Source: Nitrospirota bacterium
Lineage (GTDB): Bacteria; Nitrospirota; UBA9217
Length of the DNA stretch: 33,925 nucleotides
Assembly (NCBI GenBank): GCA_963741205.1
Contig: CAVUHW010000009.1
Span: 1-33,925 of the forward strand
Direction of reading: 5' to 3'
The position numbers and the translations under genes are program-made. Shown one piece after another: positions 4,662 to 33,769 of this stretch (its first letter is position 1; every line of letters starts with the position of its first letter). Under the pieces are notes generated by a model. It was not told where the DNA came from. It searched no databases and saw only the letters and a program-made list of their open reading frames with translations.

Positions 4662-4751
4662 GTTTTGGCCGTGACACCGGGTGAGGGTATTAAAGTGCCT
4701 CTGGTTTCCGGAGGTTCAAGAAAACGCTTTGCCTATTGTTGTGGGATTAAC

Positions 4752-4810
4752 AAATTCGACAGGAAACGTATAAATTCGATAAATCTAAACGATTGCGACG
4801 TTCAGGATGC
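4752..4810 (+). repeat. 46-bp-unit repeat family copy
   Basis: aaattcgacaggaa (core 4755) and TTCAGGATGC (4801), spacing 46. Confidence 0.55.
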
Positions 4811-4856
4811 TAAATTCGCTGAATATTACGATCGCAAATATGGTTCTCTCAAACCG

Positions 4857-6569: not shown

Positions 6570-6604
6570 TTTCAGCGGTGGATTATTTGTGAGGTGCGTT
6601 AATT

Positions 6605-6646
6605 AATTCGAGATGAAGTGCGCAGATCCACGATTTGCATTTGACG
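6605..6646 (+). repeat. 45-bp-unit repeat family copy, left part (interrupted by the intron; continues at 7311)
   Basis: joining 6605-6646 to 7311-7325 restores a close homologue of 9828-9884. Confidence 0.85.
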
Positions 6647-7310
6647 ATCGCGGTAGGGATGCCCGTTACCGGCACCCCCGCACAGAACCGTGCGAGAAGG
6701 GTTACTTCACACGGCACCTACCTTGGGTAAATGACGCAAGACCGCTTGCAGACTACGACCTCACGTATCCTGTCAAGTCCGTTCAATTGCTTTCCCCGTC
6801 TCTGTGTACAGGTCGCAGACGACTTTCCAGAATTCCCCTTGGTCATCAGCCTTCCCTCCGGAACCTCCGCAACGAGTGAGGACACCTCGTATTGTTCGGC
6901 CCCTTCTTCGGTACTACGCCGATGTCAGACTGCTCGGCAGCGTGCATGTAAGGATTACGGCCACTGGCCTTCCCTTACCGTCCCGCCGATATTCCGGTCG
7001 GGAACTGCTGAGCTCTCCCGGTTCTCGAGCATAGAGTGTCCACGCATGCACAGGGTCTTCGACTCCGCGGGGCCGAACAGCAACTTGCTGTTAGCGCGCT
7101 GTTCGTGGTGCCTTCCCGATAGTTCAACTCGGTCGGCGCCCCGGACTCCAGATTTCGGAGCTCAATGGCTGGCCTACGTTTCCCCTGTCAACGCTTCACG
7201 TGCGGTCTCACGATCGCCCGCGCATGACTCGGGGCCATGATGGATCAGCTCGTCCTTTCATGTAGGGGACTTGCACCCCCTGCTCTATGCCGGTTTATCC
7301 CGGCGCTTTC
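6647..7310 (-). mobile_element. ORF-less group II intron (class E-like)
   Basis: minus strand: 5' GAAAGCGCCGGGATAAACCGGC...GGGGGTGCAAGTCCCCT; domain V GTGCCGTGTGAAGTAACCCTTCTCGCACGGTTC; domain VI ending CCCTACCGCGAT; EBS1 UGAACU (7121-7126) complementary to exon end AGUUCA. Confidence 0.92.
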
Positions 7311-7525
7311 TGAACTTCAGGATGATCTTCACACGGAACGTTTCGTTCGGAAGTTTTTATCCTTCAGCGTAAGTGCCCTTCTCGATGAACACCTACAACT
7401 GTTTTATCTCAATCGTACGCAACAGTCATCATGGCGGAGTGTAGGGTGCATATGAACGCACAACTGACTCATCGGTCGGGTTAATCAGCCCGACGGCGCC
7501 GAACTATTGGTTTGGATTGTCTATA

Positions 7526-8080: not shown

Positions 8081-9649
8081 TTACCGATATTTTGGATCTT
8101 TGCAATTGTTGCTTTCACTGAAGACCGAGCACACTACTTCCTCACCCCATATTTTTTTGCCTGCACGCTTTGGGTTTTCTAAGAAAGCCTGATTACGCTC
8201 GGTGAAATACCTATCTATTGCGAACTTGCACTCATCAACAGATTGATAGTCACTGTTGTGAATGACTGCCTTGGCCATGCCACTAAAAACGGATTCGATC
8301 ACATTTAAAAATTGCGCGCTCGAAGGAAGCGGGGCAAGTTCCACAAGTGGGGTATGATTTCTGTCTCTATATGTAGGTTCATTTACCTCTGTGACTTTTT
8401 CATAGAGTTTTTTGGAAGCGTGCCAAGAGGCCGCATCCCAGGAAAAATAAATTCGTTCTTCATCCGTGTATTTGGAAAGGAGAATTTCCAGTAATCTTAT
8501 CATTTCGGCGGTATTCTTTTTGCCGGAATAAAAGTGAGTAACTTGATTTGTGGTTAATTCTAATGCTGCAGTGCAGATAAGGCTGCCTTTACTCTTTTGC
8601 AATTGGGGTATTGTTCGCGTTTGATCTTTCGGGAAAAAAGCCCGCCCACCACGGATTCTAATTGCGACAGGACCAAACTCGTCGATGGAGAAGAACTTTT
8701 CGTTTTGTTTAAGACTGGAAAGAATATTGGTAATCTTTTTCAGCTTGGTACGATATTCTGGATCGGGACTTGTCAGAACCGTTCTTGCTTTCTTGAATGC
8801 ATAACCTTCTGAACGAACATATTCAGATATCATGGTTTTGCAAATTGTCTCACTATAAATATTTGAATATGCTTGTACTAACGTTTTTAAGCTCCAAGAG
8901 GTTCGATTGATATTATGGAGTGAAGGCGCTTCATGTATTAACTTGATTATTCGGTCCTTTTTGAGCTTAATGTTGTTAACTACCTGTTCTGGACTCTTTC
9001 TTGTCCTATGCAAGTCGAGATGCTCTAATCCTTTGTCTATAAAAACTGCATACCACTTTTTAATGGTCTTGCACGACCTTTCTATTTTCCTGCTTATTTT
9101 GGTTATCTGGCCTCATTTAAGCAAATCTAACAGGGCTACGGCTCGTTCCCATTTGCTCCGACTGTTCGAGGACCTCCATGCTCTCAGAGTTTTTTCAGTA
9201 TCCTTGGACACGTCTTTAATTTGCCATTTGTTGAATTTGACCTTAGCAAATCCATTCTTCCTGCGCCAGTTATGATAGAGAGAGACAAAATGTGAATATT
9301 TGAACCCCAAAGGCTCACTTTGATGATACTCATGCCAAAGAGTTATCAGGTTTGTATTTTCGTTTTCGAGGCGTTGATGGAATTGAAAAAGGCGATCAAT
9401 TAAACGGGCTTGTCTGACATTTTCGCAAATATTCTTCTGCGGCTTCAAGGAAGCCGCAACAATATTTGCAGACTGATTAACAATGTCAGTGTGAACAAGG
9501 TCGGAACTGTTGTACATTTTAATGTACGAGCGGACAGTAGATCGCGCGATTTTAAATGATCGTGCTATGGATGTAACACCAGCACCTTGAATAGCATGCT
9601 GGATTATCATACCTTTTATTTTCCCTGGGCTGATGCTTTTTTGAGTCAT
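8081..9649 (-). pseudogene. IS630-family DDE transposase with IstA(IS21)-like N-terminus; one in-frame TGA
   Basis: FSIDEFGP, WDAASWH, AQFLNVIESVF; ORFs 9113-9649 and 8081-9013 are in the same frame, separated only by TGA at 9113-9115. Confidence 0.85.
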
Positions 9650-9827
9650 GGCATGAATCCCGATAAGTTTAAAAAGTTAAGCAATGATTAGGCCATGTCG
9701 GTTTCAATATTTATGACGAATATATTACTGATTCATGGCGATGTCAATGATAACGATTGAGCTAGTCAACAATGGGGTTATCGAAAAGGACTGTCGATAT
9801 CGAAAAGGACAACGATGAGGTTTGTCA

Positions 9828-9885
9828 AATTCGGGATGAAGTGCGCAGATCTGCGATTAGCAATTGGCGTGAACTACAGGATGGA
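9828..9885 (+). repeat. 45-bp-unit repeat family, intact unoccupied copy
   Basis: TTCGGGATGAAGT-N30-ACTACAGGATGGA; cores at 9830 and 9875. Confidence 0.85.
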
Positions 9886-9930
9886 GGGCTCGATGAAAGT
9901 TACAAATGGCAATTGTGATTCTTCTGCGCC

Positions 9931-10860: not shown

Positions 10861-11190
10861 TTATCACTTTTTTTCTAGGCTGTCTGCCCTTTTAATATAT
10901 TCATCGGAATTTAGAGGGTCAGGTCCTTTGTATTGGCCTCTGGATTTCTAAGCGCCCTCGTTAGTGATATATGCCAATACTCGTTCAACGCGTGTCTGCG
11001 GATTGCCTGAAACCTCCAGCACATCCACCTCTTAAGCTATTATAGCAACTTTAAAAGATGCGCCTTTGTCCTAGCGACCAGTTTATGATAAAAAGTATTT
11101 AAGAGAATACAGTGACGGCATGCATATGGGGGAGGAATTCGCCGTCTGCAGGGGAAAAGGTGAACGCCACAAGGATAGTCTAGGATATCA

Positions 11191-11247
11191 GATTCGAGGT
11201 GAAGTTGATAGTTTAAGCATCATTGCTGAGCGAGAACTTCAGGATGC
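11191..11247 (+). repeat. 45-bp-unit repeat family copy
   Basis: TTCGAGGTGAAGT-N30-ACTTCAGGATG; cores at 11193 and 11238. Confidence 0.8.
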
Positions 11248-11388
11248 AGGCTTGAAATAATACTTCAACTGGAAAGCGTCACGTCGGTCACGGGCATCTG
11301 ACATAATTTTTCTCGGTCCTTGCTTGTATTTCCATTTGTACGGGGTAAACTGATAGTAACTCAAGCATTTCACCTAAGGAGGTACCAC

Positions 11389-13099: not shown

Positions 13100-13175
13100 A
13101 TTTTCGGGGTATCTGATTATCGAATACAAGGTGAAAACTGCAATTTCAGAAAGTTACAACTGTCAACGACTTCAG
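13100..13175 (+). repeat. 46-bp-unit repeat copy interrupted by IS110 (continues at 14791)
   Basis: near-identical to 843-918; the expected continuation GATGA resumes at 14791. Confidence 0.85.
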
Positions 13176-13255
13176 ACCTTATGATTAAAATGGCAAGTCT
13201 GACTTAAGGTATATTTTCGTTAGGAAGACCAAAATACACCGAAAGGAGACTTGCC

Positions 13256-14326
13256 ATGATTAACATTAGCAAACTCGATTTCAGCGGTCAACATATTTAT
13301 GTCGGTTTGGACGTTCATAAGAAAAGTTGGAGTGTATGCATCTTGACTCAACAGTTTGAACATAAGACCTTCACGCAGCCACCAGATCCATCGGTCCTGG
13401 CCAACTACCTGAATCGGAACTTCCCTGGTGCAACCTATCACGCCGTTTATGAAGCCGGCTATTCCGGATTCTGGATCCACGACCAGTTAAGAGAAAAAGG
13501 CATCGACTGCATAGTGGTAAATCCTGCTGACATTCCGACAACAGACAAGGAACGGGCAGGCAAAACCGATAAGGTAGATTGCCGCAAACTTGCCCGATGC
13601 CATAGAAACGGAGAGCTCGTAGGAATCTATGTTCCCACGCGGATAAAGGTCGAAGATCGCAGCTTGATTAGAACCCGACGAAACATGGTCAAGAAGCAGA
13701 CCCGGTGCAAGAACCAGATCAAGTCCATGCTCGCTTTTTATGGCATTCATCTACCCACTGACATTGTTACCCGTAACTGGTCAAGCAAGTTCATTAAATG
13801 GCTTGAAGCGATTCGCATGGAAAAGGCTAGCGGCAATGTCTCCTTTATGGTGCATCTCCAAGAGTTACACCATATCCGGGGAATCGTCGTCGAATTGAAT
13901 CGGAACATTCGCGTCCTCTCTCGGTCAGATGAATATAAAGTTAATGTGAAATTATTAAAAACCGTATCGGGGATCAGCACACTCACCGCTATGACATTTC
14001 TCACGGAGCTGTGTAATATCGATCGGTTTGGATCACTCGACAAACTTGCGAGCTATGTCGGTCTCATTCCCAATACGGACTCCAGCGGAGAAAAGGACAT
14101 AACAACAGGCATTACCAACCGACGCAACCAATCACTTCGGCATTTGATTATTGAAAGCTCGTGGATTGCTACACGGAAAGACCCGGCATTACTTATGGCC
14201 TTTGAACGCCTCTCTAAAAACATGCCAAGAACAAGGGCCATCGTTCATATCGCCAGAAAACTATTGAATCGAATCAGATACGTCCTGAAGAATCAGAAGG
14301 AGTATGTGCCTGCGGTTATACAATAA
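13256..14326 (+). CDS. IS110 family transposase/recombinase
   Basis: YVGLDVHK, YEAG, KTDKVD (DEDD set), YVGLIP...SSG, ARKL. Confidence 0.96.
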   Translation: MINISKLDFSGQHIYVGLDVHKKSWSVCILTQQFEHKTFTQPPDPSVLANYLNRNFPGATYHAVYEAGYSGFWIHDQLREKGIDCIVVNPADIPTTDKERAGKTDKVDCRKLARCHRNGELVGIYVPTRIKVEDRSLIRTRRNMVKKQTRCKNQIKSMLAFYGIHLPTDIVTRNWSSKFIKWLEAIRMEKASGNVSFMVHLQELHHIRGIVVELNRNIRVLSRSDEYKVNVKLLKTVSGISTLTAMTFLTELCNIDRFGSLDKLASYVGLIPNTDSSGEKDITTGITNRRNQSLRHLIIESSWIATRKDPALLMAFERLSKNMPRTRAIVHIARKLLNRIRYVLKNQKEYVPAVIQ

Positions 14327-14329
14327 GAA

Positions 14330-14640
14330 ACGGGATCACGTTAGAGCGGTCGATCTTAGAACCTGATTCATCGTGGGTACCGCTTTGTTCCATCCTGCAG
14401 CCGGCTCATGAAGCGTGTCTGCACTACTACAGACTGCGGACCCACAACTTTAAAATATGATCAAGGAAATGCAGCTGCCTTTAATGATGTAGGCATGTCT
14501 GCTAATAAAAGCGTGGTTTTAAAGATTTGTCCGTTCTGCGAACAAATCCCGAGAAAGGATCCTACGGGGGGTATCAGGATATGGACTGCCCCGGGAAAAT
14601 CGATCCTGGGGCATTTGTGAGAACCGATTTCTGCCCCAAC
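14330..14640 (+). ncRNA. candidate bridge/seek RNA
   Basis: non-coding right end with stacked hairpins; internal loop carries TCCATCCT (14389-14396) and ACTACAG (14426-14432), matching both strands of the target motif; transcript limits are a guess. Confidence 0.65.
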
Positions 14641-15085
14641 AAAGAAAATTCTCACAAACGATCAATGCAGGGGGGGAATCCTCCGACTGGTACACTTTCA
14701 ATGACCATTAACGAAAACAAATAGCAAACAGGGAAAAACCTATCGGCCAGCCTGTTTAGTCTGAGCCAGGCTTGACTTTTAACATAAAAGGATGAAAACG
14801 AGGATTGTTTATACTTTTTAATATTGCGGAATTGTGGTTGGATTCTACACGTCTCAATTTTTGCAATTGTCGCAGACAACAGGAAGGTTGTTGATGTGAA
14901 ATGCCTCTCAGATGTAGTACACTTTTCAAGACCGGAGGCGTTCATTTTCTCATGACCGGGGAATGATGGAATGAAAGAAATCCTCGTTTTGGTTCCAATG
15001 ACCTTCGGGTGACTGGACCCGAAGGGGTGGACATTCCGAATGACTGACTTCGGATTATTCGATTAATTTTCGTTTAATGGTGTGC

Positions 15086-31586: not shown

Positions 31587-31631
31587 AATACTATGAAAAC
31601 GGATACTATGAGGACGAATACTATGAAGACG
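31587..31631 (+). repeat. 3 x 15-bp tandem repeat, each unit containing an ATG
   Basis: aatactatgaaaacg / gatactatgaggacg / aatactatgaagacg. Confidence 0.85.
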
Positions 31632-33769
31632 GAAAACATCAACCTATTCGTGATCAACCTGATTGTGATTGGTGCGGTAATTCTGGCCTTCGCGCTTTTC
31701 GGATGCAGCAGCGGCAAATCGACGGATACGACAGGCTCGGGGACGATCGATGGGGCCGCTCTCTATAGCAGCGACTGCAGCGGATGTCATGGCTCCCTTG
31801 CCACGAGCGGCAAGAAAGGGGCATCAATATCCCAGATCCAAAATGCGATTGCACATAATATGGGCGGTATGGGGGCCTATACTAACCTCACCACCGATCA
31901 GCTCCAGGCAATCATGACCGCCTTGTCGGCAGCAGGAACGACAAACCCCGCCACAACGAACACAACGAACGCATCGGACACTCCCACCTCGTCAACCGCT
32001 TCGCTCGACGGGGCTGCGCTCTATACGGACAACTGCGCTTCGTGCCACGGTCCGCTTTCCGCAAGCGGCAAGGCCGGCGTAATGGCGTCCGCAATCCAGG
32101 CGGCGATTGCAAACAACAAAGGCGGAATGAGTATGTACTCGAACCTTACGACAGCCCAGCTTCAGGCCATTGCGGACGCGTTAGCGGCAACGCCTGCGCC
32201 AACACCCACGCCCACTCCAACACTGACAGATGGTGCTTCGCTTTACGCGACGTACTGTAGTTCGTGCCACGGCGCCCTTACGACGAGCGGTAAGCGCGGC
32301 GCGACGTCTGCCAGGATCCTGTCCGGCATCAGCAGTGTGAACCTCCATGGGATCCCTCTCAAACCTTACGATAGCTCAGATCCAGGCCATAGCAACCGTG
32401 TTGGGATCGGCGCCCGCGCAGACTCCCACGCCTGCGCCCACGACAAATGACGGGGCTGCGCTCTATGCGGCCAACTGCAGTTCATGCCACGGCCCGCTTG
32501 CCACGAGCGGCAAGTCGGGAGCAACATCGTCCCAGATCCAGAACGGCATTTCCCGCAACTACGGCGGCATGGGACAATTGTCGAATCTCACGACCACTGA
32601 AATCCAGGCCATTGCGACGGCATTAGGTGCAACCCCGGCCTCGGCCCCGACGCCAACACCTTCGCCGACTGACGGGGTTGCGCTCTATGCGTCCAACTGC
32701 AGTTCGTGCCACGGCCAGCTTGCTAACAGCGATAAGAGGAACGCAACGGCCTCTCAGATCCAGACCGGCATCAGCAACGTGAGCGGGATGAGGTCTCTCT
32801 CAAACCTCACGACCACACAGATCCAGGCCATTGCGACGGCATTAGGGACGACACCGGCCCCGGCCCCGACGCCGACACCAACGCCTTCGCCGACTGATGG
32901 GGCTACGCTCTATGCGTCCAACTGCAGTTCGTGCCACGGCCAGCTTGCTAACAGCGATAAGAGGAACGCGACGGCCTCTCAGATCCAGACCGGCATCAGC
33001 AACGTGAGCGGGATGAGGTCTCTCTCAAACCTCACGACCACACAGATCCAGGCCATAGCATCGGCCTTAGGCGACGACACCGACACCAGCGCCGACACCG
33101 ACACCAACGCCTGCTCCGACTGACGGGGCTGCGCTTTACACCACATACTGCAGTTCGTGTCATGGAACGCTGGCCGCGAGCGCCAAGACAGGAAGAACGG
33201 CTACTCAGATCCAGACGGCCATTACCAACGTGAGCGGCATGCGTTCTCTTTCAAATCTCACTGCAACGCAGGTCCAGGCTATTGCTACTGCCCTGGCAAT
33301 TGCGCCGACTCCGGCTCCAACCGACGGCGCAGCGCTCTACAGCAGCAACTGCAGTTCGTGCCACGGCCAGCTTGCCAACAGCGATAAGAGGAATGCAACG
33401 GCTGCTCAGATCCAGACCGGAATCAGCAACGTGAGCGGGATGAGGTCTCTCTCAAACCTCACAACAACGCAGATCCAGGCCATAGCGACGGCCTTAGGCA
33501 CGACACCAGCGCCTACGCCTACACCGACACCTACACCGACACCGGCGTGCGGTTCCTGCCACGCCATCCCGCCTGCGACCGGCCATCACACGTATCATGT
33601 AAACTCGCAAGGGGTGTCGTGCGGCACCTGCCACGGTACGGGCTATAGCAAGACTGCCGTGAATACGGCAACACACAATAACGGCGTGGTAAACATCGCG
33701 AGCACCCCGGGCTGGAACCCGACCTCGCGCTCCTGCTCGAACTCGTGCCACGGTAAGAAGAGCTGGTAG
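31593..33769 (+). CDS. lipoprotein cytochrome c: 8 tandem monoheme domains plus C-terminal 3-heme module; two +1 frameshifts
   Basis: lipobox LFGC; 8 x DGA.LY...CxxCHG...M domains with Pro/Thr linkers; CGSCH, CGTCH, CSNSCH; frameshifts near 32343 and 33073. Confidence 0.9.

Follow-up and report, generated by a model that had tools for sequence, protein, structure and literature searches.

The stretch of DNA considered here (the window) is the entire 33,925-bp contig C9 of a Nitrospirota bacterium (GenBank assembly GCA_963741205.1, contig CAVUHW010000009.1), whose source assembly (G000) comprises 50 contigs and is 84% complete. On its minus strand, positions 6647-7310 hold a 664-nt group II intron that lacks an open reading frame (ORF) and that divides one copy of a short intergenic repeat into two halves. 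Further copies of the repeat occur elsewhere in the window, one of them occupied by an insertion sequence (IS) of the IS110 family. In what follows G-numbers denote genomes, C-numbers contigs, L-numbers related-intron loci and X-numbers sequencing runs. Relatives of the intron were sought in 41 related genomes, of which 10 (G000 included) contained matches, and 80 further intron loci were taken from a species-level genome collection; G001 and G002 are near-complete congeners of the source genome. The sequencing runs each contained at most 0.13 of the sampled words; X1 and X2 are RNA libraries from a single study, and the contig from X4 that bridges the intron site is DNA.

The Rfam model RF02005 (group-II-D1D4-6) is matched on the minus strand over its full extent (model positions 1-225) at 7273-7053 with 178.2 bits (E = 2.8e-52), which delineates the domain I core (7053-7273), and the domain V/VI model RF00029 is matched at 6719-6647, with the alignment ending exactly at 6647. 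A hidden Markov model (HMM) of the repeat family (family D7), searched with nhmmer, aligns 6599-6646 on the minus strand, the 3'-exon half, with model positions 3-50 (E = 1.5e-07), and 7311-7344 on the same strand, the 5'-exon half, with positions 51-84 (E = 0.003). As the two halves adjoin at positions 50 and 51, excision of 6647-7310 restores a continuous member of the repeat family, with the expected junction ..CCUGAAGUUCA|CGUCAAAUG.. (in the RNA ..AGUUCA|CGUCAA..). The regenerated repeat is homologous to 9828-9883, and 6605-6646 is 86% identical to 9828-9869 across 42 nt; there are two occurrences of the 17-mer GATGAAGTGCGCAGATC, where 0.14 would be expected. An intron-less relative of the split repeat is found in X4, a soil metagenome, where a contig joins 6637 to 7311 with 9 different letters replacing 6638-6646. 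Furthermore, contig pieces from X1, X2, X4 and X6 terminate at 6646-6648 or at 7310, and a full-length relative on contig C10 of the source genome aligns with intron positions 1-552 and 574-664. Together, the Rfam matches, the repeat HMM, the contig stops and the full-length alignment fix the identity of the ribozyme and its exact borders, from a 5' end GAAAGCG to a 3' end ..CUACCGCGAU. An earlier note on this DNA, made by inspection of its letters, had proposed a group II intron on this strand with these same borders and the restoration of the repeat upon its removal, and all three proposals are borne out.

The repeat is about 85 nt long and intergenic, and is detected by nhmmer 61 times at E <= 1 in the source assembly, with a single orientation on each contig and a spacing of 0.4-7 kb (e.g. 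ten copies in 28 kb on C5 and eight on C41, with a further array on C45). In the window, the uninterrupted paralogue of the split copy lies at 9822-9903 (minus strand, E = 3.6e-21), another copy, with AGTTCT at the homologous site, at 11185-11251 (minus strand, E = 9.2e-07), and a diverged copy at 4747-4829 (minus strand, E = 0.07). In the orientation of the intron strand the consensus reads ..TCGAAAC-ATTCA-GCG..CATCCTGWAGTTCA^CGCC..GCGCACTTCATGTCGAATTTGT-TAAY, with ^ at the point of intron insertion. The longest ORFs between repeats are mostly on the strand of the intron, opposite to the orientation of the HMM; because the arrays thus share a strand with most of the neighboring ORFs, the intron lies in sense orientation.

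The choice of the insertion site can be followed from the guide loop of the ribozyme. A hairpin CCGA-GUUGAACUA-UCGG at 7116-7132 (minus strand) displays UGAACU (7126-7121) in its loop, which is complementary to AGUUCA, the final six bases of the 5' exon (7311-7316, minus strand); these correspond to exon-binding site 1 (EBS1) and intron-binding site 1 (IBS1), respectively. By simple arithmetic, a 9-nt loop would contain an exact 6-mer by chance with a probability of about 0.001. Relatives show the same relationship with different letters: the C10 copy has CCCAGG in the loop and CCUGGG just before its 5' end, and in a copy from G001 the EBS1 ACGAAU pairs with AUUCGU. To quantify this covariation six loop bases at a fixed offset were compared with the respective 5' exon, allowing Watson-Crick or G-U pairs, and the exon/loop pairings were shuffled in 2000 permutations. 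Among the distinct copies with a GAAAGCG or GAAAACG 5' end, 20 of 27 pair at all six positions with their own exon (permuted mean 1.5, maximum 6). In the remaining group, for which the border was set two bases later and which includes three misfiled GAAAGCG-like variants (L041 among them), 16 of 33 distinct copies do so (permuted mean 0.77, maximum 5). The EBS1-IBS1 match, which the earlier note had recognized in the window copy, is therefore not a chance occurrence: the covariation at the same offset identifies the loop as EBS1 and the G of GAAAGCG as the first base of the intron. The seven GAAAGCG-type copies that fall short of six pairs are L021, L054, L069 and L071 (5/6), L064 (3/6), and L045 and L047, both from G001. 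One of these is involved in a reciprocal mismatch: the EBS1 UCAGCU of L041 (G001:C9:512236-512911; 5' end GAAAGCU) fits AGCUGA, the 5' exon of L045, which lies inside an intron fragment, while the EBS1 ACGUAC of L045 (G001:C1:964512-965193) fits GUACGU, the 5' exon of L041. This suggests recombination or conversion between the two ORF-less copies, or else a chimera in the assembly.

One might alternatively regard the match between EBS1 and the exon, together with the restored repeat, as a coincidence of segmental duplication, inasmuch as the left half of the repeat is clearly present just twice within the window. Against this, dozens of copies exist genome-wide, the halves adjoin at adjacent model positions, the intron-less form is present in a second sample (X4), and EBS1 covaries with the exon in relatives far beyond the permuted expectation, so that we assign this explanation a negligible probability. 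The hexamer AGTTCA is found at the homologous site in 8 of 33 near-full copies of the repeat, including the paralogue at 9822-9903, where it reads TGAACT on the plus strand at 9870-9875 and is identical to IBS1. The earlier note had designated this hexamer a free target of the intron; its presence is certain, and its availability as a target is no more than plausible, since IBS1 is adjoined by a different base here than in the occupied copy (CCTGTAGTTCA versus CCTGAAGTTCA).

The flanks of homologous introns had been put forward in the earlier note as a check, with flanks unrelated to the motif as the outcome that would speak against it. Taken literally, this is what was found: none of the flanks of 100 related-intron loci contains a match to the repeat HMM at E <= 0.01. 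In a separate comparison, the HMM matched 1 of 9 5' exons of relatives, weakly (6.3 bits), and BLAST searches with the paralogue at 9822-9903 against 5 related genomes returned no match. The unmatched flanks nevertheless do not refute guided insertion, because in each relative EBS1 has been altered to suit the flank of that copy; the lineage thus retargets through changes in EBS1. The possibility that the full-length copies of G001 reside in the same repeat family was considered and rejected, as neither BLAST nor HMM searches support it. These three copies instead sit after ..TCAACCYGAATTYGT, a motif matched 25 times in G001, with the reversed control giving 0. On contig C1 of G001 all 10 occurrences of this 17-nt target motif below 620 kb have minus-strand orientation and all 6 above 814 kb have plus-strand orientation, a switch that would fit a replication-related orientation bias. 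Many copies from Desulfobacterota sit after GGGGWC followed by five or six variable bases, and both the C10 copy and the G001 locus L045 are located in fragments of other introns.

Group II introns canonically begin with GUGYG. The window copy fails this signature, beginning with GAAAGCG instead (7304-7310, minus strand), and in 27 distinct relatives IBS1 is immediately followed by the same type of end (GAAAGCG or GAAAACG), with GUGCG or GUGUG appearing two bases further into the intron in more distant ones. Among relatives of the protein encoded by the intron family, the clade with this terminus (L052-L131, L019-L047) extends over Nitrospirota, Desulfobacterota and other phyla, and loci with lower-identity proteins mostly keep GUGCG or GUGUG. 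A non-canonical 5' end shared across a clade would escape the standard rules for delimiting intron boundaries. None of the publications listed by a full-text search as naming GAAAGCG along with group II introns concerns intron termini as far as their titles and the beginnings of their abstracts indicate, and the terminus may still be reported in the body of the literature.

Comparison with the second copy in the source genome (C10:78356-80291) shows how the window copy lost its coding capacity. The two are 84% identical, with intron positions 1-552 corresponding to 78356-78917 and positions 574-664 to 80199-80291 of C10, and the C10 copy has 1281 extra nt in domain IV encoding a reverse transcriptase (RT)/maturase. 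At the deletion junction in domain IV (6738-6758, minus strand) the window copy retains 21 nt in place of these 1281 nt of the gene for the intron-encoded protein (IEP). No intact IEP gene was found within 6647-7310, the longest intron-sense remnant being a frame of 22 codons (6718-6786, minus strand) with a TTG start and a TAG stop, which we compared with the IEP N-terminus LNGLDRIRE... The window copy accordingly lacks the RT/maturase gene in domain IV that marks an autonomous mobile intron, and is incapable of autonomous movement. Intact IEPs of 441-442 aa are encoded in G001, G004 and G010, and the G001 relative attains 365.9 bits on TIGR04416 (cut-off 300). Since Pfam detects RVT_1 alone in the 442-aa IEP, the protein is devoid of an endonuclease domain. 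In the source genome itself the frameshifted IEP gene of the C10 copy is spread over three frames, and all remaining RT matches of the assembly are fragmentary, with 31-47% identity. The surroundings of the C10 copy (C10:78106-84473; L002, L009-L011, L015) resemble an intron graveyard, in which the full-length frameshifted copy directly follows a second RF02005 match (141 bits) and is itself followed by at least three more RT fragments of 34-47% identity.

Taken together, these features make it very probable that 6647-7310 derives, as a non-autonomous copy without an ORF, from a group II intron that is endonuclease-less and does not belong to class IIC, and that it was inserted into one copy of the ~85-nt repeat by EBS1-guided reverse splicing with an RT/maturase acting in trans. 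Under this scenario, the intron would have entered the repeat by reverse splicing, at a site chosen by pairing of the EBS1 UGAACU with the AGUUCA directly upstream of the insertion point. The RT/maturase would have been supplied by a full-length relative, such as the C10 copy prior to the frameshifting of its IEP, and, as would be expected of an endonuclease-less IEP, priming might have taken place at the replication fork. We consider the finding itself to be real and this mechanism to be well supported; overall, it represents a sound but rather ordinary case of mobile-element insertion, unusual in a few details.

Several observations weigh against this interpretation or against the present competence of the copy. 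The RF00029 score (32.5 bits) is below the gathering score of 40; as the full-length relatives reach just 35.2-35.3 bits and are likewise under that score, low values are typical of the lineage. The putative EBS2, UCUGGA in an internal loop that precedes the EBS1 hairpin on its 5' side (7147-7152, minus strand), is a weak candidate that would pair with UCCUGA (7322-7317) at 5 of 6 positions; a similar 2+3 pattern of pairing is seen in copies from G001 and is inconsistent elsewhere. Across 68 copies, none of the columns covering the first ~230 positions of the intron covaries with the first base of the 3' exon in the manner expected of EBS3, the best columns being an invariant G, and the coordination loop is probably located outside the aligned part. 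No intact IEP of the clade of this intron is encoded in the 84%-complete source assembly. Finally, domain V (6684-6717, minus strand) has UGC in place of AGC as its catalytic triad (6716-6714) and U at 6687, where its relatives have A. The contigs from X1, X2 and X4 (95-99% alike) have A on the RNA strand at both 6716 and 6687, and these two substitutions, which set the window copy apart from 97%-alike contigs elsewhere, may mean that it is dead. As 12 of the 15 aligned copies have the triad AGC, the lineage conforms to the AGC/CGC signature and the window copy deviates from it. With its triad mutated to UGC, the present activity of this copy is doubtful, and its splicing may be impaired.

Thus, we see about an even chance that the intron, having inserted as described above, is now an inert fossil that would neither splice nor move, and would merely split the repeat and any transcripts reading through it. 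This would agree with the two domain V substitutions, with the absence of an intact cognate IEP from the assembly, and with the damaged triads (GGC and AUC) of two ORF-less copies in G001. On the other hand, the remainder of the ribozyme scores 178 bits against 166-175 for full-length copies, EBS1 is still a perfect match to its own exon, and the incompleteness of the assembly means that a donor of the IEP may be unassembled. Domain VI (6650-6683, minus strand; RF00029 alignment) offers a candidate branch-point A at 6654, proposed from its position alone, 8 nt before the intron RNA's 3' end, which reads ..CCCUACCGCGAU and terminates in AU. In group II introns the G of the domain V triad usually faces a U in a G-U wobble. 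The consensus of the aligned copies of this lineage instead has an A opposite the G of AGC (GAGCC../..GGAUC), implying a G.A pair.

Other ORF-less copies of the intron are known from the genomes analysed, three in G001 (676-682 nt) and one in G022, and their domain IV junctions are similar by eye. A single origin of these copies was considered but remains unsupported: in a tree of ten copies based on the ribozyme alone, the window copy groups with a full-length copy from G010 (98/97) inside a full-length clade (100/99), apart from the ORF-less copies of G001. This placement indicates that the ORF may have been lost more than once, or that copies may have recombined with each other. The recurrence of ORF-less copies in several genomes could also be taken to mean that the RNA is a free-standing functional ribozyme, with a DNA-cutting activity like that of the hydrolytic endonucleolytic ribozymes (HYERs) or with some other domesticated role. 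The RNA libraries might be read in the same direction: X1 yields one 649-nt contig and X2 two pieces, which cover 6648-7293 only, are 95-99% alike, preserve EBS1 unchanged, and have a word depth of 28 in X1 and 13-16 in X2. These contigs hint weakly at the accumulation of a sister ORF-less RNA; a further point to be set against this is that their ends at the borders could be assembly breaks of a multi-copy element and that DNA can occur in such libraries. The uncovered flanks in X1 and X2 carry no information. The damage to domain V in the G001 copies argues against selection on the ORF-less form, and the grouping of the window copy with full-length copies fits repeated decay better than a single selected lineage. 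Moreover, HYERs are described as ORF-less introns of class IIC that act as DNA-cutting RNAs (bioRxiv 10.1101/2024.08.31.610620), and the window ribozyme, although ORF-less, is not IIC-like. We therefore regard a free-standing function as very unlikely.

Several known groups were tried as a home for this lineage. Class IIC is ruled out by the AGC triad of the family, the 6-bp IBS1 and a ribozyme of ~640 nt; for the same reason of not being IIC-like, the intron is not a HYER. Class D membership is not supported, as the motif LX3AX3PXLF[V/A]HW is absent from the IEP C-terminus (..CLIKTWIPAAKIKHPYPHQRLCVNHPR). The IEP is 56-60% identical to those of rhizobial and Burkholderia plasmids (56% to the multi-copy Sinorhizobium plasmid IEPs), and its relatives in the PDB, class C RTs and LtrA, score alike and so do not decide the class. 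RmInt1 and the class D introns are described as having an endonuclease-less IEP with the above C-terminal motif (PMC4615759); the present IEPs share with them the lack of this domain and a length of ~420-440 aa, but not the motif. A parallel in behavior is offered by Thermosynechococcus elongatus, in which, according to Mohr, Ghanem & Lambowitz (2010), ORF-less introns derive from an ORF-containing intron, are mobilized by the IEP of a relative, and diverge in their targets (PMC2882425). Both systems have ORF-less copies, diverging targets and insertions into other introns (here the C10 copy and L045). In contrast to the Thermosynechococcus introns as described there, the present ones come from a Nitrospirota lineage, have a non-canonical 5' end and target a short intergenic repeat, and their mobility is predicted.

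The arrangement of the repeats raises the question of whether they are attC recombination sites of integrons, an identification that we put at somewhat below an even chance. Co-oriented copies of the repeat appear to bound single-gene cassettes in the arrays on C5, C41 and C45, as attC sites do, and the source genome encodes an integron integrase (IntI; TIGR02249, 367.5 bits) at C18:131988-132923. The ends of the repeat read ..AAC and GTT... A number of findings detract from this identification. RNAalifold gave no consensus fold for the repeat, the mean z was -0.01 (n = 33), and the arms of individual copies paired only slightly better with each other than when shuffled (5.48 versus 5.13), a value reached in 195 of 5000 permutations. 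Neither a copy of the repeat nor another array was found within 110-160 kb of the intI gene on C18, and no intI scored above the cut-off in the congeners G001 and G002. The arrays could still represent clusters of attC sites lacking integron integrases (CALINs).

Introns have been reported from comparable surroundings. The IIC-attC introns (e.g. S.ma.I2) are described as class C introns that recognize a 3-4 bp IBS1 together with a stem-loop and insert at TTGT/T in the R'' bottom strand, antisense to the cassettes (PMC7923331). The window intron likewise occupies a short repeat that resembles a recombination site and belongs to a cassette-like array. Unlike the account of IIC-attC introns in that source, it has a 6-bp IBS1 and a family triad AGC, and sits in the center of the repeat on the same strand as the ORFs. 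Membership of the IIC-attC group was accordingly rejected, the CGC triad, the short IBS1 after a stem-loop and the antisense TTGT/T insertion all being absent. The same publication describes UHB.I2, a IIB/CL1 intron from a cassette array in a soda-lake metagenome with the borders 5'-UUGCG..GU-3'. Judged by that description only, it resembles the window intron in being non-IIC, in having the orientation of the cassettes and in its non-consensus borders; it differs in being full-length with an IEP and in lying just after the attC, whereas the window intron is ORF-less and inside the repeat (PMC7923331).

The second element in the repeat family is the IS110-family element at 13169-14796 (plus strand), whose true ends lie within these coordinates. 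It has the layout of the IS1111 group, with a transposase gene (13256-14326; Pfam DEDD_Tnp_IS110 and Transposase_20) followed by a long downstream non-coding region. The element sits at ..ACTTCAG|GATGA.. in a diverged repeat, for which 844-960 provides an empty paralogue. A 94% identical copy of the IS on C5 of the source assembly splits a repeat into a left part GGCGTGAACTTCAG and a right part GATGAAGGTCTCG.. (..ACTTCAG / GATGAA..). The earlier note had placed the intron 5 bp from the TTCAG core used by this IS, and the two copies of the IS, both located at ..ACTTCAG|GATG.., agree with this: 5 bp separate the intron site from the first base of TTCAG, and 10 bp separate it from the IS site. 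The same note had further spoken of two unrelated RNA-guided elements converging on one motif. The convergence is real at this site and not unprecedented, as it parallels the known cases of IIC-attC introns and IS1111-attC elements. The latter, as described for the IS1111/IS110 elements guided by seekRNAs, include ISKpn4 and ISPst6, which use attC sites (PMC11187229). The window IS shares with them a non-coding region downstream of the transposase gene and the use of one fixed point of the repeat; compared with that description, both the attC identity of the repeat and the RNA guide of the IS are candidates only here (PMC11187229).

Within the non-coding region of the IS (14327-14789), CCATCCTG at 14390-14397 is, by eye, complementary to the CAG|GATGG that straddles the point where the IS inserted, and close by ACTACAGAC looks like the left flank of the target joined to the end of the IS. 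The region with CCATCCTG and ACTACAGAC may be the guide of a seekRNA or bridge RNA. One copy of the repeat, at C5:7602-7685, has an additional ATAAA at the IS insertion point that matches the right end of the IS (..ACATAAAAGGATG), and may be the footprint of a departed IS.

At a more general level, the observations would permit a broader but tentative view, which we consider doubtful as a whole: that there is a widespread, unclassified clade of endonuclease-less introns with GAAAGCG in place of GUGYG, which in one Nitrospirota genus gave rise to expressed ORF-less ribozymes with an EBS1 retuned to a cassette repeat, and that this repeat is a safe harbor shared with an IS1111-type RNA-guided IS that inserts 10 bp away. 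If true, insertion in the sense strand could allow splicing to keep the cassette array expressible. Irrespective of this, the locus provides a natural example with an exact empty site and a retuned EBS1, set in a comparative series of more than 40 copies in which a six-base guide tracks its target. The presence of two types of RNA-guided element within one 15-bp stretch of a repeat bears on the role of such repeats, possibly attC sites, as landing pads. Current understanding is not overturned by these results; rather, proliferation of the Thermosynechococcus type and the behavior of IIC-attC introns and IS1111-attC elements are extended to another intron lineage and another phylum.

Two other features of the window deserve mention. 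At 8081-9649 (minus strand), between two copies of the repeat, lies an IS630-like element with two ORFs (DDE_3 and helix-turn-helix domains), and three kinds of mobile element are therefore present within 8 kb of the array. Near the end of the contig, 31593-33769 contains eight tandem coding repeats of ~222 nt, each with a CxxCH-type motif (..CSSCHG..), and looks like a repetitive gene for a multi-haem cytochrome c.

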